This document shows, one piece after another, positions 1,046 through 46,500 of a stretch of DNA of 64,000 nt. How positions within the stretch are numbered: the stretch's first letter is position 1; every line of letters begins with the position of its first letter. The position numbers were made by a program, and so were the translations under genes. The DNA is from Reclinomonas americana ATCC 50394 (taxonomy: Eukaryota): assembly GCA_048213135.1 (NCBI GenBank), contig PS015014.1, positions 219,787 to 283,786 on the forward strand, given 5' to 3'. The notes under the pieces are model-generated. The model ran no database searches. It was given only the letters and a program-made list of their open reading frames with translations, and had not been told where the DNA came from.

Positions 1046-1727
1046 GATCAAACAAGTGTTTCAAGTCGTCGGCGCGTGGCGTAAACGCCGATGCAATAAT
1101 GGCAAAACGCAGACGTGTCAGCGGGCTGTCGATGCCACGACGCATGCGACGCACGCGGAATGCACACAGAAGTGCCGTCAGTGCAGCGCCCTGCGAGAAG
1201 CCGAGAATGCCATCGAACGGTCCCTGCATGCCAACAGAATGAGTTGTCTGCTGCTTTGCGATACAAAATGCAGAAAGCGCCGGCGACGCACATGATCGCG
1301 CATGTAATCCTCGACATGTGTCACTGTGCTCTCGATGGACTCGTACACGCGCCCCTCCGAGTGCACAATGAACCAGGTGCGCCGATCGCTCAGCACCTGC
1401 GTGGAACCATCTTCTCGTGCCACTTCGAACGGATCGAGAGCGTATGTTCCATCCAGGAATTCTGTGTGGGTGCGTGTGTGAGTGCCAGGGTCCAGTGCGT
1501 GTGTGTGTGTGTGTGTGTGCGACTATATAGCGTACGTACCGAGCTCGGCGAGCTTGCGGAGTGCCTCGCGGAGAGCTCCGGTGCGCGCACGAAAGGAGGC
1601 CGCATTCTGTCGGAAGCCTGTGTGTGCACGAGGGGAGATGCAGCGCGTGAGCATCAAAGAGGGCCAGTAGTACGGAAGGAGTAGTGTGGAGCGTACCATG
1701 CAGACAGAGGATTCGCAGAGGCGGCAT
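501..1727 (-). CDS. FSH1/OVCA2-family serine hydrolase with C-terminal PTS1-like AKL; multi-exon
   Basis: Spliced motifs: MPPLRILCLHG|FRQNAASF, GPFDGILGFSQGAAL (nucleophile GxSxG), IPSLHVTGETD, HQGGHYIP; ends AAAAKL-TGA. Confidence 0.92.
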
Positions 1728-3865: not shown

Positions 3866-6800
3866 TTACAATTGACTGGCATTGCTGCGAGCGGCTGGAC
3901 CCGTCAGGAGTCTCATGGCATACGCGTCGGGCTGTGCACGAAGAGTCACTACCGCGCCCCTCGAAGAAGTCGTGCATTCAAAAACACGAAAGAGACTTAC
4001 CGAGGAGGCATCGCTGCTCCTCTGCTGTTGTCGACTTTGTGACTGAGAGCTGGAGCTCGACACGGCAGAGCCCTTTAACTTCCACAGTCGGTACAGGCGT
4101 ATGGCTCGTTGTCCGAGGCGCACACAGAGAGGAACCACCACACTCGCAAACCCGATGCTAAACACCACGATACCTGCGTCACACCATAAATCAGTCGGCA
4201 GGCTCGCGAACAGCAGTGATGAAGAGAGAGGAAAAAAAGACGCAACGGGAAATGGAAAAGCCCGAGTCGGTGGTCAGCGACGTCGACGGTCCAACAAGCA
4301 GCGACAGCAGCACCAGGAACAAGAGGGAGATGCCCTCTAGCACATTGTCGATGTACCGACGGTAGGGCAGGAATACGAGGTGCACGACGAGGAATCCCAG
4401 CTGCCCGCATGCAGTACCGTCAGCAACCCGCAACAAGTACACACTGAGTGCCGCAGTCCGCAACAGTTGTCAACCACAGCGCAAAGTGCAGGTTATCGAG
4501 GTTGGATTGTCGAGCCAAGACGAAGAATACAAGGGCCAGCACGACACGCTGCACAAGCACCACGTGAGCCAGTCGCTCCCATGTGACACGCGCGTGATTA
4601 CAAACCCGACTAAGTGCAACGGCTTCCCAGAAGTATAGATGCCGCTTGTAGATGGCCACCAGTCCTCCGTATCGTTTCCACAGACCGCGGTATTTTCTGG
4701 CGCTCTGCAAACACAAAACACACATGAGTAAAGCTGCGCCAGTTTTGTTCGCGCACACACGGCGTCACCGTGCGCACCGACTCGTCGCCCTTTCTGCCTC
4801 GCCGTGCATCACAACATGAGTGCATCATTCACACCGCCACGCACTCGCACACACACACACGAGAGACACGTACCGATCGCCAGTGGATGTTCCCTCGTCT
4901 GGGTGCAACCCAAGTGGTGCAATGACGGAGAGCAGTCCTTGCCGTCGCTGCCACCAGAGCAGGAAAGCAACTCCGATGGGGCACGCAAACAGGAGTGCCG
5001 CCATGATGACTGCAACCGCGAGTGAGCGAAAACTATCTTACTGAGCGAGATACGCTGCGGTCACCAAACTGAAAAAGGGCTCCCACTCGTCGTAAACGTT
5101 GCAAGTGCCGACAGAGTCTACGCATGCCCGACAGTTGAGTGCTGTTGTGTGTGGCCATGAGGGGGGGAAGCATGCATGCGAATCACTCACCACTTGGGCA
5201 TCCGCTGCACTGCAGCGACGGCACCAACACATTGAAGGTGCCGAGATCGCCAACCGAGATGCAGTTGAAGTACGAAGTAAACGAGTACACCAGCGACCAG
5301 TAGATGCCGATAAAAATCAGCGTCGATGATCGCAAGTAGAATTTGACAGTGGCCCACTGAGCAAAGGCCAGGAATGCACGCGATGTCGAGTGCTGCATGA
5401 TCCACAGACGTCAGCAAACTGCCACGCCTCTCTCTCTCACACACACACTCTCTTTCTCACCTTCTTCCAGCAACATGCAATCAGGAGAACCGAGAGTCGA
5501 TGAAGGCCGTAGATTATCCACAGCGAGATCATGTACAACAGCGGCTTGAGTGCCTGAGTCATGACTTCGCCGAAGCCGCCGGCGTCGAAGGGACACACGC
5601 TGGAGACGGTGAGCCAGCGGAAATTGAAGACATCAGTAAGCTGACTGATGCTGGTCGACGGGTAGAACACCAGTCCCGCCGTCTGCACGTAGAACAGCAT
5701 GATGCGGACCTCTGCATTGACCGAGCCCTGCGGTTCATGAAAATAGTGATGAGAGACATTATGAGAAGAAGAGAGTGTGGCTCCGGTACTCACTTGCGAC
5801 AGAACGTGCAGCACAAAGGTGGCGATAAAGATCTCGGCCAACAGCTGCACAATGACACCACCATTCACCGAACCCGCCTCACATGCGAGACACTGGTGCA
5901 ACGACAAGCACATGAGGCGCACATCGTAGAGACAAACACACACGGCACGTGATGTACACACCTCGTGATTCCACTCAGCATATCCGGCAACGCACTGGCC
6001 ACACAGCACCGAACTGCCGTCTCGATTCAGACCGGGCTGGCACAGACCAGAGCCAGTCGGGATATACGATGGTGGAGTTGCGGGCGACGGAGGGACTGAT
6101 CGCGTGGTCATGCCCCCGCCAGACGCAGTTGCAGGAGAGGACGAAGTCGTGACGGAAAACGGGCGGAAAGCACCGCCACCAGCGGGAGAGGCGCAAAAGT
6201 TGAACGGGCAAAGCGCCGGAGTAATCATGCCGTTCGAAGTTACCGCTGTGTGAGCGTTGCGTAAGAAGGATGGCAACCGCGCAAAAGGCTGATGTGTGCA
6301 ACTTTGACTCACTTCTCTGTCTCACTCTCTCCTCTCGCTCTTACTCTCTCGCTCTCCCCCTTCTCTTTCCCTTCTCGCTCTCTTCCCTTTCCCCGTCTCC
6401 CTCCTCTCGCATTACCTGGCCAAAAATTGCTGAGAATCTCCACACTGTCGCCGCCGTTGCACTCAAGGAAGGAGCTGCATGTCAGACACCCGTTGAGTGC
6501 GGTGACGACGCTGTATGTTTGCACCGAGCATCCTATGCAGACGCCGTTGACTGGATCGAAGCCGAAACCGGCAGCGCACGCCATCACCGACACGGGGAGG
6601 ACGAGAGGATCGTTGCCGAGGTTGGGCGAGCTTTTTTTTTTTTTGGTTCGCGATAACAAGGTAGTGAGGCAGATGAACAACATAGGCGGTGCACAAACAC
6701 GCACACAACGCGGAGAAAAGTGATCACCTGAACTGCAAGGTGGTGTTGCCCATCGTGCCGTAGATGCGAGTGCTCACGGACGTGGTGCCGCTGGTGGTCG

Positions 6801-9800
6801 CCAACAGAAGGCCGTCATCGGTACAATTGGCGCACGTCAGCTCCACTGGAAACTCCCACAGGGTCTGCATGAGGCTGTCCTTGACGTCGTACACCCCGAT
6901 CGTCAAGTTGGCGATATGTTCACCCAACATGGTCGCTGCGAGGGGTGAAGGTCAGACAGCAACCAACAGGGGCAACGACACGAGCGCACGGCGCAACTGA
7001 TGTTCGTCTGCGACGCGCGCAGGCGATACGGTGCACTGGCCATGTGAGCACCAAACATGGCCTGGTCGTCGGCAAAAGTCACTTGGCACGGTGATGTAAT
7101 CGTCGAGCCACAGTCGTATATCAGCGTGTCGTCGCCCACTGCAATGAGCGCAGAGTGAACAAACACATCCCGAAGCTCATGGCCACGGAATGCAATAGCA
7201 CAAACGAACCTGAGTCGTGCATCGGCTCGTCAAACACCAGCGAGCAGCTGCGGTGCAGGGAGACCAGCTGATAAAACGGTGCATCCCAGTACATGCCTCC
7301 ACCGGCTCCGTATGACAGCGGATCACCCTCAGCAGTGGCGATATTATCGGAAAATGTGCTCTGCGGTGCACAACAACAACAACAACAACAAAATTCAGTG
7401 ACTTTCGCTTGTGCGTGGGGAGTGAGTGAGCGACGTCGCAGCGCAACAGTTCCCTCAAACAACACGCCACAGTCAACAAACAGCATGTTCTCATCTTCCG
7501 GCGGTGTGACATACACGGCGCCGCCGAGCAATGCTGTGTTGTTGCTGAAGACGACAGACTGGAGCAGCGGCGATGTGACACCTTGCGGAGCGAGCTGAAC
7601 ACTCATGGCTCCGCCGTTGCCCTCAGCCGAGTTGTTCTCCAGCACCGAGTTGGACATCACAACGGTGGCACCGGACGTGACCCACATTCCGCCGCCATTC
7701 TCGTACGCTAAATTGTTGCCGATATATGTCGACACAATCGTAGTGACCGAGTTGTCGTCACACATGACGCCGGCGCCGCGCGACGCAGAGCCACCTTGCA
7801 GAAAGAAAGCGTTAACAACTTCGTCTACTGTGGAGAGAGGTGCGTGCCATCACGATGCAGAACTCACCTACAATCCGGCACTGATACAAGGAACTCACTG
7901 CCGAGTCGTCCAGATGGACATGACCGCCGGCGCCGACGTCCGACAGGATGCCGGCATTGGCAGTCGGCGATCGATAAACGAGGTTATTCTCAAAATTGGT
8001 CGATTGTACGTTCAAGGTGGCATTGATGTCGGCGTACAGGCAGCCGCCCTTGTAGGCTCGATTGACTCGCCCCTCTCCATTCACCAGGCTCACTTGAGCG
8101 AGATCTCGCGCACTCACAGCTGTACGCACGCACGCACCGCATGAGTAACACGAGAACAGAATCCGAAGTGCAAACACCTCGTCACGTACCACCGCCACTG
8201 AACGCCGTGTTGTTGACAAACGAAAAGTTGTTGGCACTGAAACTGGCTTTCTGAGTCAGAGAAACAGCACCGCCTGCCACCGCAGCTTGGTTGTGCTGCA
8301 TGATAATGTTGGTGCCGACGAACGATGCGCCGTCCTCGAGGTAAATGGCGCCACCACCGCAAGCAAACGCGTTATTGTACAGAAAGTGGACGGTGTTGGC
8401 CGAGATCGTTGGTGTCAGCGAGCCCGACAGACCAGCACCGAACGAGGCCGAACCTCGCAGAAAGTCCACCGACGACAGCACCAGGTGAGTACCGACGAAT
8501 GCCACACCGCCACCCGACACAGCAGACACGTTGCTGTCGAATACCGACTGCGTCACCGACGCAGCACTGCCACTAATTGACTGAGCACACACAATCACAC
8601 AATCACACATGAGAGGTAATTACAACAATCCACAAAGGAATCGCAAGAAATCTCACCACTGCTCCTCCGGCGACCTGTGCCGCATTATTGACAAACACAG
8701 ACTGTGTAACAGAGATGGACGGACTTTGCGTGTCCACGTGGACACAACCGCCATTCAGCGTCGCCACGTTCCCGGTGCACAACATACCGAGAACGGTGAC
8801 GAGGCTGGAGAGTCACACAAGCGAACAAAAGTTAGTAAGCAGGAGACACACACTGATCGCTGGCCACAACATCTCACCCAGCGCCATACAAGCCACCTCC
8901 GTTTCCGGCCGAGTTGAGGCCAAACGTTGTGTTGGAGACGGTGAGCTGCGTCAGCACATCCGAGTACATGGCACCGCCGTTGTCCGCCAGATTGGACGTG
9001 AACGTGCAGTTGGCGACATTGGTCACTTGCGCGGTGACGTCCACAGCGCCGCCGGTACCTGTTGTACCGGAATGGTGTGAGCTCCTGCTGCGGATCACAC
9101 AAAACACCACGCGCACGCATGGGGACTCACTGCTCTCCGCCTCGGTGCTCTGGTATTGATTGTACTCAAAGAAGCTGCTCGTCAGCGTCAGCGCCGTGGT
9201 ACCAAACAGCGCAAATGATGATGACGACTATGTGCGAAAAAATGCGATGAGCACGCAAGAGTGGAGTGTCTGTTCACCGCTGCAAGCTGATCACGCAACT
9301 GAAAGGACAAGCATGGCACCGCCGCCGAGTACAAATGACGAGTCGACAGGAGGATCTTTCACGGAGAATGATGCAGAGTTGTAAAGCATGCTTGTCCGTG
9401 TGACAGTCACGTTGAGCTGAGGCACACAATGAGAGGACAAACGACAGTGGCCACAGCTTCCTGTCGACGAGCAGCACGTACCGTAGGTGTATCCGACGTG
9501 GGACTGACTACACACATGGCACCGCCTCCGACCTGCGACACGTGTACGATGCAGTGAGGAGCCATGATATCAACAGCCGACAAGACAAAATCAGACTGTC
9601 GCCGTGCACCGTAAACGATCCGGCAGCTCGATCAGGCACAAAGTACGAGATGCGATTGTTCACGAACGACGAGTCCGTCGAGCTGACCACCAGTGTGGAA
9701 AGCGCAGGCGACGCCACCGAAGCTGTCACATGTACACGCACGTGTGAGTTTTTTTGCGACTCAACCACATCAAAAGCAGCACGACTCGCACCGTACAGAG

Positions 9801-12800
9801 CACCGCCACCCACGACGACACGAGGCGAGTTGGCAATCAACTGGGCCCCCTTGGTGTCACCCGACTGGTTGCTGGCAAATGTGCTGTTGCTTACGTTGAC
9901 GTTGAGTGTGGCCAGTCCGAATCCGTGCGTGGCCAGCATGTATGTCGCACCGCCGCCGAGGAACACATTGGCGCCACTGCTGAAGCCTCTCAAGACGTTG
10001 CCAGTGAAGCGCGACGACGAAATCGTCTGTGTGCGACAGGAGTCAGAAGGCCACCAAAACACAGTGCATGCACTGGGGTGAGACACGTACGATTGCCGCG
10101 GCCGCAGGCGGGTAGACAGCGGCGTCCGAGGTGAACGAAGAAGGAAGCGGCGCAGAGCTTGTGACGAGAAACAGGACGCCGCCACCGCCGCCATAGCTGG
10201 TGATGCCGGTGGACGAGCCGCCACCCACCGACGCCAGATTGTCGTCCACAGTACAGTTCTGCATACGTCCATTGAGAGTGGACTGACCGTAATCGCTTCC
10301 TCTACGCACGACGAAAAAAAGTAAGCGCGAGCTGGCGACAATGACTCAAACGGATGCTGAGTTTCGCAACGAATTGACAAACGCCATGCCGCCGCCATTG
10401 ACGTTACTGCCAGAGGGTGGAAATGAGCAGCGAAAAAAACATACACAGTCCTCTGCTGCGTGACAACGAACCTGCCCGCAGCCAAGTTGTCCTGCACATT
10501 TGCCGTGTTGTTGTGCCCGCGCACACTGTACATGCCCATTTCAAGACTGGCGCTTGCGGGGCTCTGCGATGGCACACAGTGGGCAACTCTTGAAGGCACA
10601 GCACGTCATCACTGAGACACAGAGAGGATAAACCTTGCAGTTGACATAGAGTCCACCACCTGCACAACACGTCAACAATGGGGTCGTGAAAAATAGTGAC
10701 AAGCACAGCAGTGCGCCAATCGCAAAACCCACCACCGAGCTCGTTGGCACCCACTGAATTATCGTTGTCGCTGCTGTTGCCCACAATTGCAGCGTTGTAT
10801 GACGACCGCACGACATTGTTCTCAAAGCTCGATCGATAGAGGTTAATGACGAGGAACGAGGCCAGCGTTGACGTGGCTTGGACAGATGGTCCACGAGCAA
10901 AGGCATAGATCTGCAAAGCGGTAGTGAGCTCATACTCAACGACAGGTTGCAGTGCTAACAGCACTGATCACAGAAGGAAGGAACGAAACTGCACCACCGC
11001 CATTTTGATTGATGCCGCCAAGTGTGTTAGCCAGATTGTAGTTGGTGTTCAGCAGATTGTCCATAAAGTACGAGTCGCTGACCGACAGAGTCACATTCGT
11101 CCGCGTTGATGAGCTGGTGCAGAGCACATACAGCGCAGCACCTGCACCACAACAACAAGGGTGTTCAGTGAGAAACACTTCTGGTGGCAAATAACGGCGC
11201 ACACGAGACCGCGATTGCGCGCATCGTACAGACCGCCATTGGCGTTGGCGCTCGGACTGCCAGTGGCAGTGTTATTGTTGGCAATCACACTGTTGCCGGT
11301 GAAAGTAGAGTTGCGAATGTCGCACGAGGCCACCGAGTCGACAAGCGCCGTCGGAGATGCAGAAGGCATTGAGAATGTGTTGATGTACACCGCGCCGCCG
11401 CCGTTTGTGTTTCCATTTGACTGCGATAGAGTGGCGTCGAGCTTGTTGTTGGCAAAGGTGCTGTTCGACAGAGTGGTATTGGTGGTGCCCATGGCACCGC
11501 CTCCCAGAATGTACAGTGCTCCACCTACGGTGCTCGACGTGTGAGAGCCAGGAGATCACTGAGCGCCCCAAAGCATGACACACACACACACACACACACC
11601 ATTCAGGTTGCCCAATGGAGCAATATTGCTCGAGGCAGTCACGACGTTATCTGTGAACTGCGAATTGGTCACTCTCGTTAGCACGGCGATGTTTCCGCCA
11701 GCACCGAGCGCCAACACCGCCGATCCTGCACACAGACGCGCAAAGACATTTTAAAAAAGAGCCCGCTGTTGAAGGGTGCACCGCACACTATGCCCATCAC
11801 ATACCACCTGTGCGAAGTCACGAAAAACAACGCGTGAACAATGTGGAGAGAAGAATGGGCACGAAAATGCTACCTGACTCACCGTTTTGATTGAATGACG
11901 CAGACGAACAATTGTCGACGGCGGCACGGTTGCCTACGAATTGCGTACTATCTATGTTCACACTCAACACCGTGGTGCCGCCGGCCACGGACAGAAAGCC
12001 GACAGCCACGATATTCATGGCACCACCTGCGTGGGCGACAGAGACAACGATCCATGAGCATCGTACTGTCTATCCTGTTAGTAACTAGCAAGGAAGCGTT
12101 GTCACCACACCTCCCGAGTTATTGCCGTCCAGAATCGACGAGCTGGGAGTGATGGCTCCCTTCGACGTCATCGTATTCCACGCAAACACGCAGTCACGAA
12201 CATCAATTGTAATATATGCATTGGGCAGCGCATTGGAAGAGGCCGTCGGCGGTAGCGACGCGTACAGAAAGAGACCACCGCCTGTCAACCACCGCACGTG
12301 AGCGACAGTAAGCAACAAGCCTGGAAAAGCTGTCTTGGCAACACAAACCTCCGTTTGAGTTTCCCAATGCCGCATAGGAGTTGTCCGCAGCCGCAGTGCA
12401 ATTGGCCACCATCGACGACAGCGCAGTGAAAGTGACCGTGGCATTAGTGAGGCCAAGCACAGTGAGCGACATGGCGCCGCCACCTGTGCAGATACAATCA
12501 GCACCATGCAACTGAATCAGCAGGCAAATGAGGACGAGGCACCGTTAAAGTTGGACGAGCTCGGGCCGATGGCACTGTTGTTGTAGGCGTAGAATTGTCC
12601 ACCGATGATGGTGACATTGTTGAATATTGTCGTGCATGTCGATGTGCCAGTACCGTATACCAACATAAACATCGATCCACCTACAGACAACCACACGTCA
12701 TGCGGACACGCAAACAATAATATCATCCAACATAACGCGGAGTTACCATTCGCGTTGCCGACTGCTGGATTCAGCGTAATCACCACATTCTCTTGTGCCG

Positions 12801-13996
12801 TGACCTGCCACGCCAGTCAGTCCACCGGGGCTCTCAATTTTTCTCTCTCACACACACGCACCAAGGACTGCAGGAGTTGGGTACCGCTCAGCCTTGTGTG
12901 TGTGATGGCCGGGGCAACAAGCGCCTGCGATGCCTCGATATCCAGGGACGAGAGAATGTAGATGTGAGCGCCACCTGCGTGCACGTTGTCAGCGTTAGCG
13001 GGCAAGCGATCCCCGAGCATGAGGCACACATACCATTGAAATTTGCAGTGGTGGCAGCACAGTAGTCGGAGTGCACGACACTGTTGTTGAAGAGTGCGCC
13101 TGACATGTCGAGGGACACCGACGAGCCACCGAAACCCTGGCTGAACAAGAACAGCGCACCTGCGAAACACGAACCACATTAGCAAACAAGGAACAAATTT
13201 CTCCTTTGCCACAAAAATACAAAAAAACCAATACTCACCGCCTGTGCAGCCAATGAGACGCAGCGCGGAGGCGAGTGTGAGCATGAAGAGTGAGCGTGAT
13301 GATGCATGACAAAGGGGAGAGGGGGGACAACTGCCGCACCGTTGGCATTGACTGCAAGCGAGGCTCCAGTGACATCGGTGGTGTGCGACTGCACGGTGAT
13401 GTTGTTGGACTGCATGCTAATGGTCGAGTTGTTGGTCGACAGCGATACAATGTAGATGGCAGAGCCTGCACAATATCCACCCAACGCAGTGAGCACCCTT
13501 TTTTCGGCGATACCCGCGGTAAAAGGCGACAGACCTCCATTGGCTGCCAGCTGCGTTGCATTATAGTTGTGCGCTCGCAGACCATTGTTGACGAATGCGC
13601 AATTGTCAACAGTTGCCGTCATTTGCGACTGTGGGCTCTCGCCGTACACCAGGACCGCACCTCCTCCAGCCAGAATGTTCGCCGAGCTCCCGTCAAACTG
13701 GCTGTAATTGTTCTCGAACGTTGAAGACGTAACATTGAGAAACATGGATTGCGAGATGGGCGAGTTGCACTTGGAGAAGATGCCAGCGCCGCCGCTCTGC
13801 AGACGCTCTCCAGGGTCAGAAACACGTGCACCGTACGCGACGGTGGACGAATGAGTGACGCACCACGACAGCGTGGACACTCTGACCGCCGGGCGCATAC
13901 ATGATGTTCTGATTAAAGATAGAATTGGCCACGGTGGTGCGCACCTCGGCTGCCGCAGATGCCTGTAGATTACATGTCCATGAGTGAGAAAGAAAG

Positions 13997-14036
<40 letters not shown>

Positions 14037-17000
14037 TGAATCACTAGCAAGTTGCGCACCGTGACAGTGGAGGCCAGCGCAAAAAATGAACCTCCACAGT
14101 TGACCACACGCGCCGCTTGCGTATTGACGGCGTGGAAACTGCACATCGTATCGCGTTGCAGTTTGGATGAGCGGGCGGCCCGTTGCACGTACAACACCAA
14201 ACGCAACCCTCCTCACAAACCTGTTGCCGCTAAAAGTCGACTGCAGTGCCGTGGCTGAGGTGAGAGCCATGCCGGTGCCGCTACCGAGTGACACCAGCGC
14301 AGCTGTGCCACCAACGAGGACGTCGTTGGCCACCGCCACGTTGCCGGTGCCTTGAGTGAGTGTGTTGTCGGCGATGATACTGTTGTTGACAAACTGACTC
14401 GACTGAATCGTGGTCGACAGCTGTGACGTACGCGCGGTAAGATCCCTCCCAGTGCGCGTGTCCACATCATGCATGCACCGGCGGCGTACAACTCACCGTC
14501 GCAGAGCCACGAAGCGACACAGCAGCGCCAAACACTGCACTGCCGAGCTCAAAATTCAAGTACACGCCAGTTGTGTTGGATGCCAGCAGTTGCGCGCCAA
14601 CAAAGTGTGAGTTGGTCACCGTGACGGTCACATTCGATGTGGTCGCGTTGAACGATCCCTGGCTGTTGTCGGCCGTGTTGGCCACGGACAGGAACCCTCC
14701 ACTGCGCACCAAACAAATGAGACGGATTGTGGCGCAACCGCATTGCGCCCCACGCTCTATGCACGCAACCCGGCAATCAGCAGGAACGAGTTTGAGCCGC
14801 TGAGATTGATGGCAGCGTCCTCGAACACCGAGTCCGACACGCGGTACTGCATCGTGCCAGAGGGCTGGATGTTGGAGCCGAAACTGAACGTCAGGAAGCT
14901 CACGACACCTGCGCGTGCAGTGCGTTGATCTTGAGCATGCGAGCCAAACAATGCACTGCACCGACATCGTGCGCGCACCTCCAGCAGTCATATACGCGCT
15001 CTGCACATTTTGCGCCGACATGGAGGTATTTGTAAACGTGCAGCCTTCAATTAGGCCCCCCAGGTTTGAGGCCGTGGCAACCGTGTAGCTACCAGCAAAT
15101 AGCGCGCCACCTGTCGAGGCAAAAAGATTGAGCGTGTATAACGCATGTGACAGTTGGAGTCAACGCAACCTCCCAGGGCCGAGGCGAAGATCGTCGAAGC
15201 ACCATCCATGACAGCCGACGAGTTAGTGAATGTACTGTTTGCAAACGCGTGCAGGAGAGTCACTGGAGAGGCCGTACTCGACACCATGCCCATGTAAATG
15301 TCACCACCGCCTACGAGCAGAATACTGGGGAACGACGATGTGGGTGGAGCCGAGGCGCTGTGGAGGGGGTCGAGTAAGGGAAAGTCCACCAAAAGGTGGT
15401 CGGCGAACGAGAGTGACGAGCGCACCTCGGATTCACTGACGTGAGACTGCAGAGGAGGCAATTTACGTCGCTTAAGCAAAACGATGGTTGCGCAGTGCAG
15501 CACACAGCCAGCTGGCGACGCAACGAGTTGCCGACAAATGTGCACTGGCTGGCCGTCAGCGTCGACGCGAGGCCCAACGTTCCGGCGTACACAGCGCCTC
15601 CACCCGTGAGCAACTGCGAGTTTCAATGTCAACGAAATGTGAGAGGCCACAAGCAAGTCGCTTCTGTGCCGCACCAGATACTGCGCCACGGCGTTTGATG
15701 TCTGTGCACTATTGTGGGAAAAAGTAGAGGACTGCAGCTGGACGGTGAGGGCAATTGACGAGAGTGATGAGGCCGAGACACTCGGCAGCGCGAGCGCGGC
15801 AAATTGCGCAGCAGCGCCCCCTGCACGTAATAATGTCAACACACACACACGCACACACAAGGCGAAGGCGAGGAAAGGAAAAGGCAGGAAGGTGTCATGT
15901 ACACACCGGCGTACATGAACTGATTCGAGTTGACACCGGTGGCAGTCAGGGAGTTGCCGGTAAACGTGCAGTTGTTCATCGTGACCTTCATCGCAGACGC
16001 CGGGTCGGCGGCGAACGAGATCACGATACCCAACAGCGCGCCACCTGCAGCGGTGTCAGATGTCCGCCGAGAGTAGATGAACATACACACGCACACACTC
16101 ACCAATCACGTGCCCGACTTGCGCGTTGCCATTGTTGTAAACCACGGTGTCGCTGGTGAATGTGGAGTTTGTGGCGTCCATGGTGAGGCCGACCAGTTGC
16201 GGAAGTTGAAAAGTCTGTGCATATGCGCAGACAGAAGCTACCATCACCCAAACGCGCGCGCACACACACACAATGTGGTGAGGAGGGCCTTTGCGGTAGT
16301 GAACATAAACACAGACACAGAGGCACACGAACCACCGCCGACAATGCCGACGACGGCCGACACTGGCGACGTGACTTGGATCGAGTTGATGGAGAACTGG
16401 CTCCGAAACACAGACACAAACGAGCGCATTGCGTGCGGCTCAGCCGCCGTCCACAGATACATGGCGCCGCCCACCGAGAACGCTTGCTGGGCCGACTGGA
16501 GACGAAGAGCAGTCACCACCTGTGTGTTATTTGAGACTCGGCAGTCGTTGATGGCCAAGAAGGCAATCTGCGGGCCGTTGACACCAAACGATCCTGCGGT
16601 CAATTTCATATCCCCCCCAGTTTGAGCAGACGAACCAGGCTCACAGAGGATGAAGACATTGGTGGGATCGAACGCACCCGCAGTCTTGGCCAGCACGCCG
16701 GCTCCACCAATCACGAATTCCTGTACAGTGGTAGACTGCATCGCGGTGTGGTTTCGCAGCAGCAAGGAGTTGGACTGGAAGACGACATTGTCGAGTTCCA
16801 CGGCGGCAAACTCTGCATTCCCCCCAATCAAGCTGGCAAACAGGCCGGCACCACCAAAGACTTGCCAGGGAGCCACGACACTGATGGCCGACAAGAGATT
16901 GTTGACGAACGAGCCTCGCACCATTGTCACAAAGGTGGCGTTGACCACTCGCAGTGCACCACCTCCCACCTCCGCAGAGGCCGACAGTGAGCCGGCAGCC

Positions 17001-17907
17001 GGCGGAACAATGAGCGCATTGTTGGTGAAATCACAGTCGGTGATCTCCAGCGCCGTGACGGCAACTGACGCGGCCGCGCCGCCAAGAGCCGTGGGCCGCA
17101 CCGCAGTGGCCAGTGTCAGCGAGTTGCTGTTGAACGTGGTGAGGTTGAAGGCGACAATGCCCGGCGGCCACACAATGTCGAGAGCGCCTGTGCATGGTGG
17201 CGCAGGTCAACCAGTCATCGTCACCAACAGAAAACAACAGCAAATAGAGTCACGAACCTGCCGCATTCCCACTAAAAGTACACAGCTCCACGAGGACAGA
17301 CGACGCATTGGTGGCCGCCGACGAAGCCGACACAACCAGGCCCGCCTGCAGCGACTGGAACGCGAGACCACGCAGCACCACACTCGAGTCGGCCACAATC
17401 GTCGGCGCCACTCCCGTAACCACTGGTCTCTGCATGGGATCCACGGAGGGCGACGCGCTCACCAACGTCACATTCTGCGCCTGCAGCGTCACCGCCGTCG
17501 TCAGCGCATACGTCCCGGCGGCCGTCGTAAACGTAATCTGCACGCCCCATCATCAGCCAATCAATCAATGCGTTGCATTCACACACTTGCACAAGCATGC
17601 ACACCTCAATGACGCTCGGCGACCCCTGCGAACACGCCTGCAGCGCGCTGATGGCCTCTGCGGAGTTGCTCACAGACTGAATGCAAGGCGGACCCGTCAT
17701 TGCGGTCGTCCGAAACCCGTGCAACTCTCGCCGCGCTGCGGAGAGCGATAGTGGTGGTGGTGGTCGCGGAGGTGGTGGAGAAGATGCAGAGGGTGACAGC
17801 AAAGACGAGGAGGTGGCCGCAGCTGCGGAGCATATCGATGCAGTCGCCACCATCATCATCATCATCATCGCCATCATTGTCGCCAGAAGCAGCCATGATA
17901 GCGGCAT
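3866..17907 (-). CDS. Giant surface protein: signal peptide, many GGA(I/L/V)/FxxN beta-helix (Pmp/pectin-lyase-like) repeats, Cys-rich stalk, multi-pass (about 7 TM) C-terminal domain; dozens of introns
   Basis: N-terminus MPLSWLLLATMMAMMMMMMVATAS. Recurrent FxxN...GGAxY motifs from ~17100 to 7300. Cys-rich segments (CAAGFGFD..C..C, CPFNFC, SVLCGQCVAGY) at 6000-6600. Hydrophobic helices and LYFWEAV/LPYRRYIDNVLE motifs at 4100-5850. Stop TAA at 3866. Confidence 0.8.
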
Positions 17908-40415: not shown

Positions 40416-43400
40416 ATGTGGGTCGCGCGCGATTGCCGCGTTTCCTTTGTCATCCACGCGACTGCGGCAAGTGAGCAGCAGGCAACACTGTGCGTCTCGT
40501 TCTCACAGGGCCAGAATGCGCGTCAGGTGAGACCGCATGCCGGTGACATTGGAGTTTTCTTGTGCTCACTCACTGCGCGCAGGTGCTGGAGAGTGTCATT
40601 CGACAGGAGGGACTGCCACTGCCGCTGCTCGACTCGCTAATGGAGCAGTACAGTGTGGCCACGCAGCGTGCGATTCACGACGATGCGCTGCGTCACATTC
40701 AAGGTGATCAAAGTGCTCTCATCGCACTTGTCTCTCTCTCTGTCGCTCGCTGACACGCACCGTGCGCTAGCCATGGCATCGATGACAGTGCCGGTGCCGT
40801 CGGCGCAGTCGCCTTCACCCGGTGCACCGTACGCGATGCCGAGTGCGGTTCCGTCGCCACCTGTTCCGTCGTCCAGCTCGGCCATGGCGACTGCTGCGGC
40901 GGCGGCCTTGGCGGCGGCCGGCTCCAACGAGCAGCTGCTTGGCCAGCTGCGGCTGCTGTTCTTGTACTCGCGCGATGTGCAAAAGGCGCTGATTGAGTCG
41001 TTCCGGCATGCGGCGGTCGAGTACGCGCAGGTGTTGCGCACATTCTCGACTGTGCTCGGCGACTTGCGCGATCGGTGAGTGAGTGTTCGTCGTCGCCACG
41101 CCCTCGGCGATTGGTGACACGTGCGCGGCACAGACACGTGCGAGCGGTGGCGAGTGTGGCGAGCAGTGACGATGGTGCGGCGATGCAGGCGCTGGTGGAG
41201 CGACACATTGTGGAGATTGGCGAGGTGGAGGAGCGGCAGAAGCGCCAACTGCAGCACCTGGCCGAATCGCAGGCGCACAGTCTGTGGTGTAGTGTGCGTT
41301 CGCTGTACGACGGCGAGGTGCGCAGTCGGGTGCACAATGGTGGACCTGTGCCGCTCTCGCCGGCCGCCAGTGGCGCTGTGAACGAGTCGCCGGCATTTCG
41401 GCCTCCCATCAAGCGACTACCTCTGCAACCGTCGCCACCAAAGGGCAGCGGCTCGTCGCCACTGACCACTGCGTCAGGGAGTGGCACCACGAGTGCCACC
41501 ACCCCGTCGTCGGCGCGCTCCAGTTCGGGTGGTGGCTTTTTCAGTCGTCTCAATCCGTTTGGTGGTGGTGGTGGTGCTGCTGCTGCTGTGGCCGACGATG
41601 TCAGTCTGGCACTGGCACCGTCTGCGTCCTCGTTCGAGCTGCTGGTGGAGGAGCACTGGCCGTACTCGGAGTTGGTGGTCTCCGGTGACGTCTCCAACAG
41701 TGTCAGTCACGTATTGCGACTGGAAGTGTGTTCGTTGTCGGCGTCATTGTGCGAAGTCGCCGATCGCTTCCGCCCCGTGCAAGAGGTGATGTGGCCGTAC
41801 CGAGATGTGGCATTCATGCAGCAGAGCTTTTTGGACTCGCCACTGCATTCGTGTGCGCCGCATCAGGACTTGAGTGACTTGCTACCGGAGACGCTCACCG
41901 AGACAACGACTCTGGAGCGCAGCTCTCGCATGTGGTGCGAAAGCTTTGCTCTTTCACAGCTGCGCGCACTGCTGGTGGGCGTCAGCGAACCAACGTTGGC
42001 GCACCCGGAGGTGGAGCGTTTGGTGACGGCCAGTAGCGAACTCGTGTACCGAGATTACTCGCGACAATTGGCCGACATTCGTCGTGCACATCCGCGCATG
42101 CAAGTCGGCGACGTGTACATTACGCGGCACTCCAACCTGCGCGATTTCCACGTGGTCATTCACATTTATCATCCGAGACGCCGAGATGGTTGCGTTCACT
42201 GTTTCCACCATGTGTGTTTTGAGTGAGTGTGTTGTTGATCGATGTGGTCCAACAGCGGAGCCGGACGAGTGGCGGTGGACGTGCTTTGAACGTGGCCTAC
42301 ATCACGTCTTCGACTTGTGCCTGCTGCTCTCCATTCATCACCTCTCCGTGGCTTTACCGCTGTTCCCAGTGGGCGGTGCGAGTGCGTCGGCACTGGTGAG
42401 CAAGTGACAGAACATTCTCCCTGACTGCTCAAGTGTCGCTCACACACTTTCCGGCGCACAGACGGTGGGCTACAAGGAGCAGGCACTGGCGACGTTGCAT
42501 GCGTGGAAAAACGTGTACAGGCGGCACCTCGACGCCACACTGGTGCGCACCATGCCACCACCGTCATCGTTGCCCCTCTCGCCCACGGACAGTCGACACG
42601 GATCAGCAGCAGCAGCACCGGATGCGGTGTCTGGTGCTGTGGCCGGGGTTGCTGACGATGGTATTCTGTCGCCGTCGGCCTCGGGCGATGACTTGTTTTC
42701 TGCAGACGACGACGGCGATGCGATGCTCGTTGCTGCTGCTGCTGCTGCTGCGGCAGTGGCGGCGGTGTCGTCGTCAGGCGAAAAGTTGCGCATGCAGTGC
42801 GCGCTTTTGCTCCTGCGTCTCTCGCTCACCACGCAGTCGTGCAGAAACAAGTCGCCGCATCTCGTCCTCGACGGGCCGTCAACCTATCACGCACCGCTTC
42901 ACTCGCGGGCGAAGGTCGTACCTGGCGGCGCACGACCGGTCATTGTTCACGACGATGATCACGACAGCATGGCGAATCAGCGATTGCACAGCGAGGCACA
43001 GAGCATGAGCATTCTGTGGGAGGGCAGCTCCAATGTGCATCCGCACTCGCGATGGTCGCGTTACTGTGGTCGAACACAACTGCTGCACCGCTATCCGCAA
43101 GATTCTGCCAGCGGCAGTGGCGACTCGGTGTCGTCATCGGTGGCGGCATCGTGGACCGCGCCGCAGCCACCGACCTCGCCGCCGCTGGTGGCCTTGATCG
43201 CCGACGCAGGTGTGTGGTGACGCTCACGAGTGTGACACGTTGTTCTGTGCATTGAAGCAATCTCCCTTGCCAGGTGAGCTGCCACCCAAGTTCCTGCCGG
43301 TGCCGGACTTGAGTGCAGTCGGCGTCAACGCATGTGGTCACGATGTGTTGACCTCGCACAATCCACCCCTGTTGCGCGATCTACGCTTGCTCTTTCCGTG

Positions 43401-43529: not shown

Positions 43530-46500
43530 ACTTGCTACTGACCGGAACTGGTTGGTCGTGTGCCTCTTGCGCTGAGCACATGTGAGCTCTGTGGAGAGGC
43601 AGTGAGCGAGTGCTACTCGTGTACGTCACAGATGAACAGCGGCGGGAGACGCAACAAAGTGAATGCGTGCCCACGTCGGCAGCGGCAAGTCAGGTCGCAA
43701 GTAGACGGCAGGGAGTGAGGTCTTGATTTCGGGAATGTACAGCGCCATGTCTTCATCATCCTCGACTGCGCATACACGCACACATGCACATGCGTGAGCC
43801 ACAGTTCGCAACTCAGAGATCGGGATTCACCACACACCTGGATTGTAGTGGGCACCTTCCGTGTCGGCGCTGCCCAGGTCGTACTTGGAGCTGCACAGGT
43901 TCAGGCGGAATCCAGGGAAGAACATCGCCATGACCACGACTGCCGAAATGATCAGGTTGATAAAGCTGATCAGCACATAGCGGCTGGAGAACTGCACGAC
44001 CATTGCATGTCAGTACACACAATGTGATACACACACAAGGACTCGTGCACTTACCGGCAGCTGCGAGTAGAGGTATCCGTTGAACAACGCAAAGAGATGG
44101 TGCGCCACCAAGCCGAATGACATGGATGTGGTGACGGCCTTGGCCAGATCGTCGTCGTACTTGGGAGGCTGGCGGTACGTGCGCAACACTACACAAACAC
44201 ACACACTGAATCAGCACTGTGCGGTCACCAGGAACCCCTCGCACAAAGGTGCTGAGTGAGTGCGGTACGCAACAATTGAACTTGTCAACCAGCGAAGACA
44301 CAAGCAGCACCAGGCCAGTCGGGATCCAAATGGCTGCGCGCGCACGCACACATACAGATGTGAGATATGCGGTTCTTCCACGCCAACATATCTCTCTCGT
44401 CTCCTCTCCAACACTCACCAGGGAATGCCGATGAGAACCACATGGTGACGAAAATGGTCTTGAGGAGCCACGCATTGCGGGCGGTGAGGTTGAATTCGGG
44501 TCCAATGTACGCATTCAGCAGCTCCTGCTGCAGTCGCACAAAGCACGACACCTTGATCCAGCGTGACAAACGCCAGATGGGATACTCGAGAATCTGGAGG
44601 GCGAGCGCAATGCCGAGACCGGTGAAGACAATCGAGTAGATGGAGCCGGCGTTGAAGACGTAAAAATCCTCGGTGCTGCTGGTGCGGCGTACCCACTCCG
44701 ACACCAGCAAGATAATGACGGCCGAGTTGATAAACTGCGCCCACGCCAGCTTCAAGCATGTGGCACGGCACGTGTCGGTGTGCGTGTAGTGGCGCTCCAG
44801 CACGCCAAACACAAACATCACACGCTGGAGCACAAAGTTGATCAAGGCAATGACAATGGCGATGATGAAAGCCAGCACGCTGCCGCCGACGTTCTTGTCG
44901 CTCTTGGCGCGATTGTTCTTCTCCGTGTCCAGCACGTAGATAATGTAGGCCGACAGTCCGATAAGGCATACGGCGAGCGAGTTGAAAATAAGGAAGCGAA
45001 TGAAGCGGTTGAATGTGCCGAATCGCAAGTGGCTCCAGTACACGTCACTGGGCTCCGGAGCGGCGTTCACAGACGGCTTGCTCGGGAAATGCCTGTCGAC
45101 AACAAACGAGTGGGTGGTGGTGTGAGTCACCACACTTGTGCGACGAGGGTGAAAAAGTAAACTCAACTGTCTCCACGAGTCCTTCAGCGTGGCGACTTCG
45201 TTGTTCGCGAAATCATTACGGAACACAGGCTGCTTGAGCACATGCAGCATCTTGTTCGCCGACTCCTCCAAGTCGAACACCACAAGCGCGAGGCCCGTCG
45301 ACGGGTATGCCTTGCCGGCGAGCTGCACGAGCGAGAGGTGCAGACAAACACGGTAAGAGTCACACGCCGCAGTGAACGTAGACACACACACAAAGCGCGG
45401 TCGGCAAACCTCGCGCAGACGCTTGCGTGTCTCCTCAAATTCGATCTTGTAGTACTCGGAGGTGCGACCGAATCCCAACTTCATGCCAAACGTGAGCCGT
45501 GTGATGGGCGGCGGCTGGATGCCTTTCAGGATCTCGAGACCGCGCGTCTTCTTGTACTTTTGGTGCAGTTGCACGAGCTTGACAATCGTGTTCTCCAGCT
45601 CCGGGCAGTTGTAGACCACGACGACCTGGTCGACGAGGCCGAACTGCTCGCAAAACTCCTTCACCTGCTCTGGATTCGTCAGAGACTTGGGCAGGCCGTA
45701 GAGTACGACCGAGAAGTCACTGTGTAGGCGTGTGTGAGTGGAGGAGGATGGGGTGAGGGAGGGGGAAGGGAGAAAGGCCAAGGCACACCATGTCGTGGTG
45801 GTCTCCATGTCGATTGTCGTGGCATCCTTTTGCTGTCGCGTCTTGACAAAGATAAAGAAGAGCACAGAGAGCACCGTGACGAACGACTGCAGCACCGAGA
45901 CCCACACCGGCGGCTCAGCTGTGCAGTCCGACGGTGCACCCGAGAGGGAGCACCAGAACGTGCCTGCTCATTTGCGTCAGTGAATTGAGAAGGGGGAGAG
46001 CGAGAGGGAGAAGGGAAGGATAAGGGAGAGAAAGACAAGGCGAGAGGGGGAGAGCGAGATCGAGGAGAAACAAGGGTGAGCGACAGGGAGAAGAGAGCAA
46101 GAAGGAAGAGTAAAGGAGAGCAGCGAGTCTAGAATCACTCCACTATGCTTTGCATGTGAGGGAAACAGACGCAACGACCAAAGGCGCCGTACGAGGTGCG
46201 ATACCAGAATGTCACCGGTCGTGCCACACCATCGGCCAATGCACCAGTCGGAGGAGTGCTTCCCGACAGGAGAACAAAGTAGATTACACACGCCGCAGTC
46301 TATCACACGCACGTGTAAGAAGCCACGCTAATGATATACAGAGCAGCGAAGGAGCTCACCAGCAGGCCGAGCGCCAAGAAAAAGAGAGCGACCAATATCT
46401 GGAAGCGCAGATACAGAAGCACGCCAATGCCCAGCTCGCGCAGCTTATCCAGTGGTGTGAAGAACGAGTACGGCGAGTAATTCAGCTGCTCCTCCTGATT

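Follow-up and report, generated by a model that had tools for sequence, protein, structure and literature searches.

Known micro-exons and the locus compared with them

In animals, micro-exons of 3 nucleotides (nt) lie between long introns, are often regulated by tissue and depend on helpers of exon definition. We describe here two candidate exons of the same size in a 64,000-nt stretch of Reclinomonas americana ATCC 50394 (contig PS015014.1, positions 219,787 to 283,786 of the forward strand; hereafter "the window"). Both belong to a single minus-strand gene whose predicted product is a beta-helix repeat protein, and each falls where a repeat opens with a Gly-Gly motif. From the analyses reported below, we estimate a probability of about 0.68 that the two triplets are predominantly included in the mRNA, each of them between two ordinary short spliceosomal introns.

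Exons of 3 nt have been known since the late 1980s, from mouse Ncam and later from Drosophila TnT (as recounted in PMC8042270), and further cases are reported for the micro-Ex8 of the Drosophila gene homothorax (hth) (PMC7392893) and for human MAP4K5 (PMC8632122). As these sources present them, the animal exons resemble our candidates in being one codon long and flanked by canonical introns, and in that inclusion or skipping keeps the frame and adds or removes a single residue. The candidates differ from them in the length of the flanking introns (75–98 nt), in their setting in a short-intron, protist-like genome, and in that both belong to one gene, where they occupy corresponding motif positions of two repeats. 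In plants, verified exons reach down to 1 nt, and those described for APC11 and VPS55 had been missed by annotation; the same account argues that the spliceosome cannot occupy both flanking introns of such an exon, and that these are removed sequentially (PMC8831610). The likeness to our candidates lies in very small coding exons that are overlooked by pipelines and aligners, the plant ones being described as constitutive and endowed with strong, conserved GTRAGT donors. The difference lies in the kind of evidence, as the plant exons are reported to be backed by RNA-seq, reverse-transcription PCR and conservation across land plants, whereas the candidates, also in contrast to the animal exons, are predicted from the DNA sequence.

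Two other systems combine several splicing events within one intervening sequence. Recursive splice sites, or ratchet points, described for Drosophila Ubx and other genes and for long human introns, likewise place an acceptor and a donor side by side within the intervening sequence, which is then removed stepwise (10.1101/006163, PMC8605326). By these descriptions, however, ratchet points leave zero nt and serve large or long introns, while the candidates would leave 3 nt within 157–180 nt. In the fungal stwintrons, two spliceosomal introns are removed from one intervening sequence by consecutive reactions, in short-intron genomes; as they are portrayed (PMC6616335, PMC9024468), they are nested, in that the donor, branch element or acceptor of an external intron is broken up by an internal one, whereas the introns proposed here stand side by side and are each complete.

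If real, the candidates therefore join a known kind, given the 3-nt exons of animals and the still smaller ones of plants. Less usual are their surroundings of short introns, their occurrence twice at one motif position within a single repeat gene, and a hint that an intron arose one codon away from an existing one. We found no paper on 3-nt exons in protists, in literature searches that were not aimed at that question. Should the triplets prove to be exons, they would rank with the smallest coding exons on record from organisms other than animals and plants, and nature would thereby have supplied a clean test of what an intron-definition spliceosome does when just 3 nt separate a 3' from a 5' splice site. 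If they are unused, the locus merely holds two long introns with unusually good internal signals.

Splice signals and codon context of the two triplets

The two sites, numbered in the direction of transcription, share one layout (Table 1). Both upstream exons end in AAC G (at 13340 for site 1 and at 11883 for site 2), and both triplets fit the common pattern CAG^GNG^GT(G/A)(A/T)GT, where the caret marks a predicted splice boundary: CAG^GCG^GTGAGT at site 1 and CAG^GTG^GTATGT at site 2. Splitting at the triplet turns the intervening sequence of 180 nt at site 1 into introns of 98 and 79 nt, and that of 157 nt at site 2 into introns of 75 and 79 nt. With the triplet, the joined exons would read N-G-G-A-L-F (site 1) and N-G-G-S-A-V (site 2), and without it N-G-A-L-F and N-G-S-A-V, in frame in either case. 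A preliminary description of the locus had reported these positions and strings and had held that skipping costs one Gly and preserves the frame; every coordinate and string at both sites was recovered on the minus strand exactly as given there, and the statement on the frame can be read directly from the sequence.

Table 1. Positions of the predicted exons and introns at the two sites and of the host gene, numbered from the first letter of the window.
Feature	Positions	Strand	Description
Exon upstream of site 1	13340..13796	minus	Ends ...A-V-N-A-N plus first base of a Gly codon; 13341-13796 translates without a stop
Intron 1a	13242..13339	minus	98 nt, phase 1, gtgcgg...cacag
Candidate micro-exon 1, GCG	13239..13241	minus	Would complete Gly codon 1 (G^GC) and open Gly codon 2 (G^GT)
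Intron 1b	13160..13238	minus	79 nt, phase 1, gtgagt...tcgcag
Exon downstream of site 1	13034..13159	minus	Begins GT GCG CTG TTC = (G)-A-L-F
Exon upstream of site 2	11883..12026	minus	Ends ...S-F-N-Q-N plus first base of a Gly codon
Intron 2a	11808..11882	minus	75 nt, phase 1, gtgagt...cacag
Candidate micro-exon 2, GTG	11805..11807	minus	Would complete Gly codon 1 (G^GT) and open Gly codon 2 (G^GA)
Intron 2b	11726..11804	minus	79 nt, phase 1, gtatgt...tgcag
Exon downstream of site 2	11600..11725	minus	Begins GA TCG GCG = (G)-S-A-V
Host gene	3868..17896	minus	Own dynamic-programming gene model; about 14 kb, about 60 short introns, product of about 3300-3400 amino acids

Splice-site strength was scored with matrices for donors (positions -3 to +8) and acceptors (-20 to +2), trained on 43 introns of the host gene, 49–97 nt in length, with the candidates left out. 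Before training, 24 of the 67 introns in the gene model had been dropped, namely the four candidate sub-introns (1a, 1b, 2a and 2b), 13 that keep the frame and contain no stop (and may thus not be introns) and seven with implausible neighbours. Intron 1a has a donor of 6.6 bits (49th percentile of the 43) and an acceptor of 8.3 bits (53rd); the corresponding values are 8.6 (72nd) and 8.5 bits (63rd) for intron 1b, 8.1 (60th) and 11.6 bits (98th) for intron 2a, and 8.6 (72nd) and 6.0 bits (26th) for intron 2b. The internal sites, those that adjoin the triplets, all score at or above the median of the training introns, which bears out the earlier view that each triplet lies between a good acceptor and a good donor.

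The acceptor-triplet-donor pattern at both sites is far beyond chance. A scan of both strands of the window (128 kb in all) gave 528 instances of the arrangement AG-NNN-GT, and an acceptor of at least 6.5 bits together with a donor of at least 8.5 bits is found at the two candidates only; with thresholds of at least 4 bits for each, 22 sites are found. In addition, each long intervening sequence was shuffled 20,000 times with its dinucleotides preserved, using intron-only matrices and counting AG-NNN-GT splits that leave halves of at least 45 nt. Such a split arose in 3159 of the 20,000 shuffles for site 1 and in 3533 of the 20,000 for site 2, and both observed scores were matched in 2 of 20,000 and 0 of 20,000, respectively, none of them with a GNG triplet.

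The lengths and internal motifs of the sub-introns agree with those of the other introns of the gene. In the helix-encoding part (17257-6631), the 42 other introns measure 42–97 nt in a model without a length term; single introns of 157 and 180 nt would therefore be outliers there, and the same length-free model favours the two-intron parse at both sites. These length statistics refer to the host gene, as a two-state gene finder run over the whole window merged genes and over-called antisense strands. Of the 43 training introns, 38 have a branch-like YTNAY motif at a distance of 8–50 nt from the acceptor, and comparable motifs were seen in intron 1a (CTCAT, 12 nt from the acceptor), intron 1b (CTAAT, 19 nt) and intron 2a (TTCAC, 27 nt). 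Donors, acceptors and lengths of 98, 79, 75 and 79 nt are thus present in all four flanking introns, and YTNAY in three of the four.

The codon context among the sister repeats points in the same direction. There are 13 sister repeats (17257-10660, minus strand) in which a phase-1 intron lies inside a Gly codon at the start of a rung, that is, of a repeat of the predicted helix. Splicing yields at least two Gly residues at 12 of the 13 introns, the exception being A-A-G-A-L at 17257, and the claim of the preliminary description that the triplets restore the Gly-Gly motif of the sister repeats thus holds. In 10 of the 13, the downstream exon supplies the rest of the split Gly codon and then a whole second Gly codon. 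The downstream exons of the two candidate sites pass directly to Ala or Ser, with no second Gly codon, and it is exactly this codon that the triplet supplies. When the triplet is included, the Gly-Gly-Ser codons at site 2 are identical to those of the sister repeat at 12746, and the two Gly codons at site 1 are identical to those of the repeat at 11233, whose sole intron sits at the position of intron 1b.

As to where the single introns of the sister repeats lie, they are found either in the Gly codon directly after Asn or one Gly further on.

Competing readings, splicing order and possible origin

Splice-site strength, sub-intron length, branch-like motifs, uniqueness within the window and agreement with the codons of sister repeats all favour the micro-exon reading. 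The preliminary description had called the triplets real micro-exons, and to this extent it is sustained by every sequence-level test that was run; the inclusion of the triplets in the mRNA, for its part, is something we infer from the DNA, and this counts among the points that weigh against so definite a statement. Other such points concern the gene itself. The first, untrained gene model, which charged a fixed -6 per intron, called single introns of 180 and 157 nt at the two sites, which makes the parse a matter of the price put on each intron. At 6246-6415 (minus strand) there is another long intron, the third, with 170 nt, so that long single introns do occur in the host gene; the earlier characterization of the two intervening sequences as oversized is accordingly correct for the beta-helix part and does not extend to the rest of the gene. 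That intron is GA- or purine-rich on the coding strand, carries a simple repeat with a period of 19 nt (6320-6382), and is without a strong internal acceptor-donor pair. Rungs that start with a single Gly also exist, at 17257 (A-A-G-A-L) and in a few further cases, and intron 2b is without a YTNAY motif, as are five of the 43 training introns.

The scoring and the question of conservation add to this side of the balance. The matrices and the curated intron set derive from our own model of the same gene. The best decoy, CAG^GTG^GTGACT at 16517-16519 on the minus strand, scores 6.7 bits as an acceptor and 8.1 bits as a donor and lies within an open coding exon (R-V-S-N-N-T-Q-V-V-T); it is evidently spurious, which means that near-threshold matches can mislead and that matrix scores taken by themselves are of limited value. 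With the 152-amino acid exon upstream of site 1 as the query, no homologue was found at E ≤ 0.001 among proteins of 267–2000 amino acids, the full predicted protein being longer than 3000 amino acids. Against 1.84 billion representative proteins, the same exon gave only two weak matches (E values of 2.3e-05 and 4.5e-04), one of them a He_PIG/Ig-repeat protein, and neither was of help for the junctions. A search for related loci in metagenome contigs gave 111 pattern matches, of which 0 were confirmed.

Of the other explanations, the most probable is that the sites hold single introns of 180 and 157 nt and that the triplet never, or hardly ever, enters the mRNA. The acceptor-donor pair inside would then be either a chance occurrence or an unused relic, perhaps of a whole repeat exon between two neighbouring introns that has collapsed to its first two bases and its last (GN+G). 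The parse of the crude gene model agrees with this explanation, as do the 170-nt intron elsewhere in the gene and the single-Gly rung starts such as A-A-G-A-L at 17257. Chance is excluded by the site scores, the window scan and the shuffles. A collapsed exon would explain the two complete introns and the GNG remnant without any selection for use, yet it gives no account of why exactly these two downstream exons should be without the second Gly codon that 10 of the 13 sisters have, and it is for this reason that collapse fits less well. A relic would also require that the spliceosome choose the distal acceptor over a proximal one that lies at a typical distance and is equal to it at site 1 (8.3 vs 8.5 bits) or far better at site 2 (11.6 vs 6.0 bits). 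Moreover, the arrangement is not obviously recent, the sub-introns being without similarity to one another and the repeats diverged, yet the four internal signals are intact. We consider it unlikely that the triplets are skipped throughout or nearly so.

Both forms could also be made in substantial amounts, by alternative cassette splicing of a one-codon exon that changes the number of Gly residues at the start of the rung. We think this rather doubtful: no regulatory element was identified, and the role in tuning the repeat that has been suggested for such splicing is pure conjecture. What speaks for it is that skipping is in frame, that the proximal and distal acceptors of site 1 are about equal in strength, and that alternatively spliced 3-nt exons are reported from animals, in Drosophila TnT (PMC8042270) and in Drosophila hth (PMC7392893).

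The preliminary description had further allowed that the triplets might mark recursive splice points, at which a first step re-creates a 5' splice site, a second step completes the removal of the long intron, and zero nt are left. A zero-nt ratchet is formally possible at site 2, where GT comes directly after the internal acceptor (cacag^GTGGTA); the regenerated donor, however, would score 1.0 bit (7th percentile), whereas the candidate's own donor, 3 nt beyond it, reaches 8.6 bits. Site 1 reads AG^GC, at which a donor cannot be regenerated, and the recursive sites of Drosophila and humans are described from large or long introns, not from sequences of 157–180 nt. This option was thus abandoned as highly improbable. 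Nested complex introns of the stwintron type, for which consecutively spliced intervening sequences in fungi provide a precedent (PMC6616335, PMC9024468), can be practically dismissed, because the introns here adjoin a 3-nt exon and are not nested, all signals of the four sub-introns being contiguous and intact.

Three further ways of reading site 1 were tried and rejected. Intron 1a read through as coding sequence is open for 35 codons, but the next exon then leaves the frame of the repeat and a stop follows two exons on. Retention of the whole 180 nt meets a TAA. A shift of the donor or the acceptor by 3 nt, by which the Gly would be regained, requires sites other than GT/AG.

Under the micro-exon reading, each site would hold two phase-1 introns one codon apart, which interrupt the two successive Gly codons of the N-G-G-(A/S) motif that opens the rung. 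Because the introns of this genome are short, recognition probably proceeds by intron definition, with donor and acceptor paired across the intron, and each sub-intron should be recognisable as a unit, as it has its own donor and acceptor, a near-typical length and, in three of the four, a branch-like motif. For the donor of intron a, the expected partner would be the nearest acceptor of good strength at a normal intron length, and the donor of intron b would then serve to remove the second intron. At site 2 it would be odd for the internal acceptor to be passed over, as it far outscores the distal one. Since a 3' splice site cannot be bound at the same time as a 5' splice site that lies 3 nt from it, removal would be stepwise, in either order, with the triplet kept.

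As for the origin of the arrangement, the codon context fits a coding triplet that was cut off when a second intron arose one codon from the one already present. Such a gain may have taken place inside GGN-GGN, which offers G^GT proto-splice sites in each repeat. The two intron positions found among the 13 repeats point either to inheritance through duplication of the repeats or to repeated gain at G^GT. When the four sub-introns were compared with the window by blastn-short, only self matches were obtained, and within the window nothing pointed to introner-like copies or to a duplication relating 1a to 1b or 2a to 2b. The repeats are too diverged for Tandem Repeats Finder.

A far-reaching extension, which we offer as speculation with the odds well against it, would be that introns have been gained repeatedly at adjacent G^GT sites, and that a repeat with two introns is the living intermediate of a one-codon "intron slide", in which a gain beside an old intron is followed by the loss of the old one. 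An intron-definition spliceosome would, by the same proposal, routinely handle 3-nt exons through ordered two-step removal, and such exons would be systematically missed by gene prediction in this lineage. More generally, such a pair of neighbouring intron positions may be informative about the gain of introns beside existing ones in repeat genes. If the triplets are real, gene finders and RNA-seq aligners would miss them, call introns of 157–180 nt and so lose a Gly of a conserved motif. Because intron 2a also begins with GTG, an aligner would be inclined to place the donor of site 2 at a displaced, non-canonical position.

Host gene and its surroundings

The extent of the host gene was predicted by dynamic programming over codon-usage and splice-site scores, in a model whose gene ends and C-terminal third are uncertain. 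In this model, approximately the first 2600 residues of the protein consist of rungs that open with G-G-(A/G/S) and carry an F-x-x-N-like motif, and these are followed by a Cys-rich stretch and then by a hydrophobic, multi-pass membrane part at the C-terminus. When the exons were compared with Pfam, that at 7448-7816 matched Chlam_PMP (PF02415) with 26.3 bits, above the gathering score of 20.6, and a second exon reached 17.8 bits with the same family, under that cut-off. Matches to Beta_helix gave 20.3 and 19.4 bits, under its cut-off of 25.9, and five other host exons had no Pfam match. A single-sequence AlphaFold2 model of the exon at 8191-8580 showed four strands only, with a mean pLDDT (predicted local distance difference test) of 45.8, and was too poor to use. 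Membership of this sequence family suggests that the host is a PMP-repeat right-handed beta-helix protein.

Judging by the searches made with the 152-amino acid exon (13341-13796), the host gene, or the proteome of its organism, is apparently missing from the public protein libraries that were consulted.

Some features of its introns may be recorded here. The commonest donor hexamer is GTTGCG, present in six of the 43 curated introns (e.g., at 15169, 14769, 10370, 6997, 4464 and 4246, minus strand). The donors of the host gene keep G at +5 and vary at +3 and +4, as in GTGAGT, GTGTGT, GTACGT and GTTCGT. An (AC)18.5 microsatellite at 13998-14034 lies inside an intron of the gene, and a (GT)n run forms the 5' part of the intron at 11599-11525.

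The window as a whole is eukaryotic in character, with a G+C content of about 0.55–0.60 and many short GT...AG introns. An Atlas search with its Anoctamin-like open reading frame led to no group narrower than Eukaryota, with a mixture of protist phyla. It includes 1758 N, which stand for assembly gaps, all of them outside the host gene and probably near 19.1–20.4 and 24.3–26.4 kb, where open reading frames are open in all frames. The neighbours could be assigned from pieces of exons or open reading frames: an FSH1 serine hydrolase (1047-1223, minus strand, 45.1 bits), an asparagine-synthase domain (32557-34053, minus strand), a fragment of Fy-3 (FERRY complex subunit 3; 40997-42226, plus strand), and a PHM7_cyt/Anoctamin-like channel (44285-45967, minus strand).

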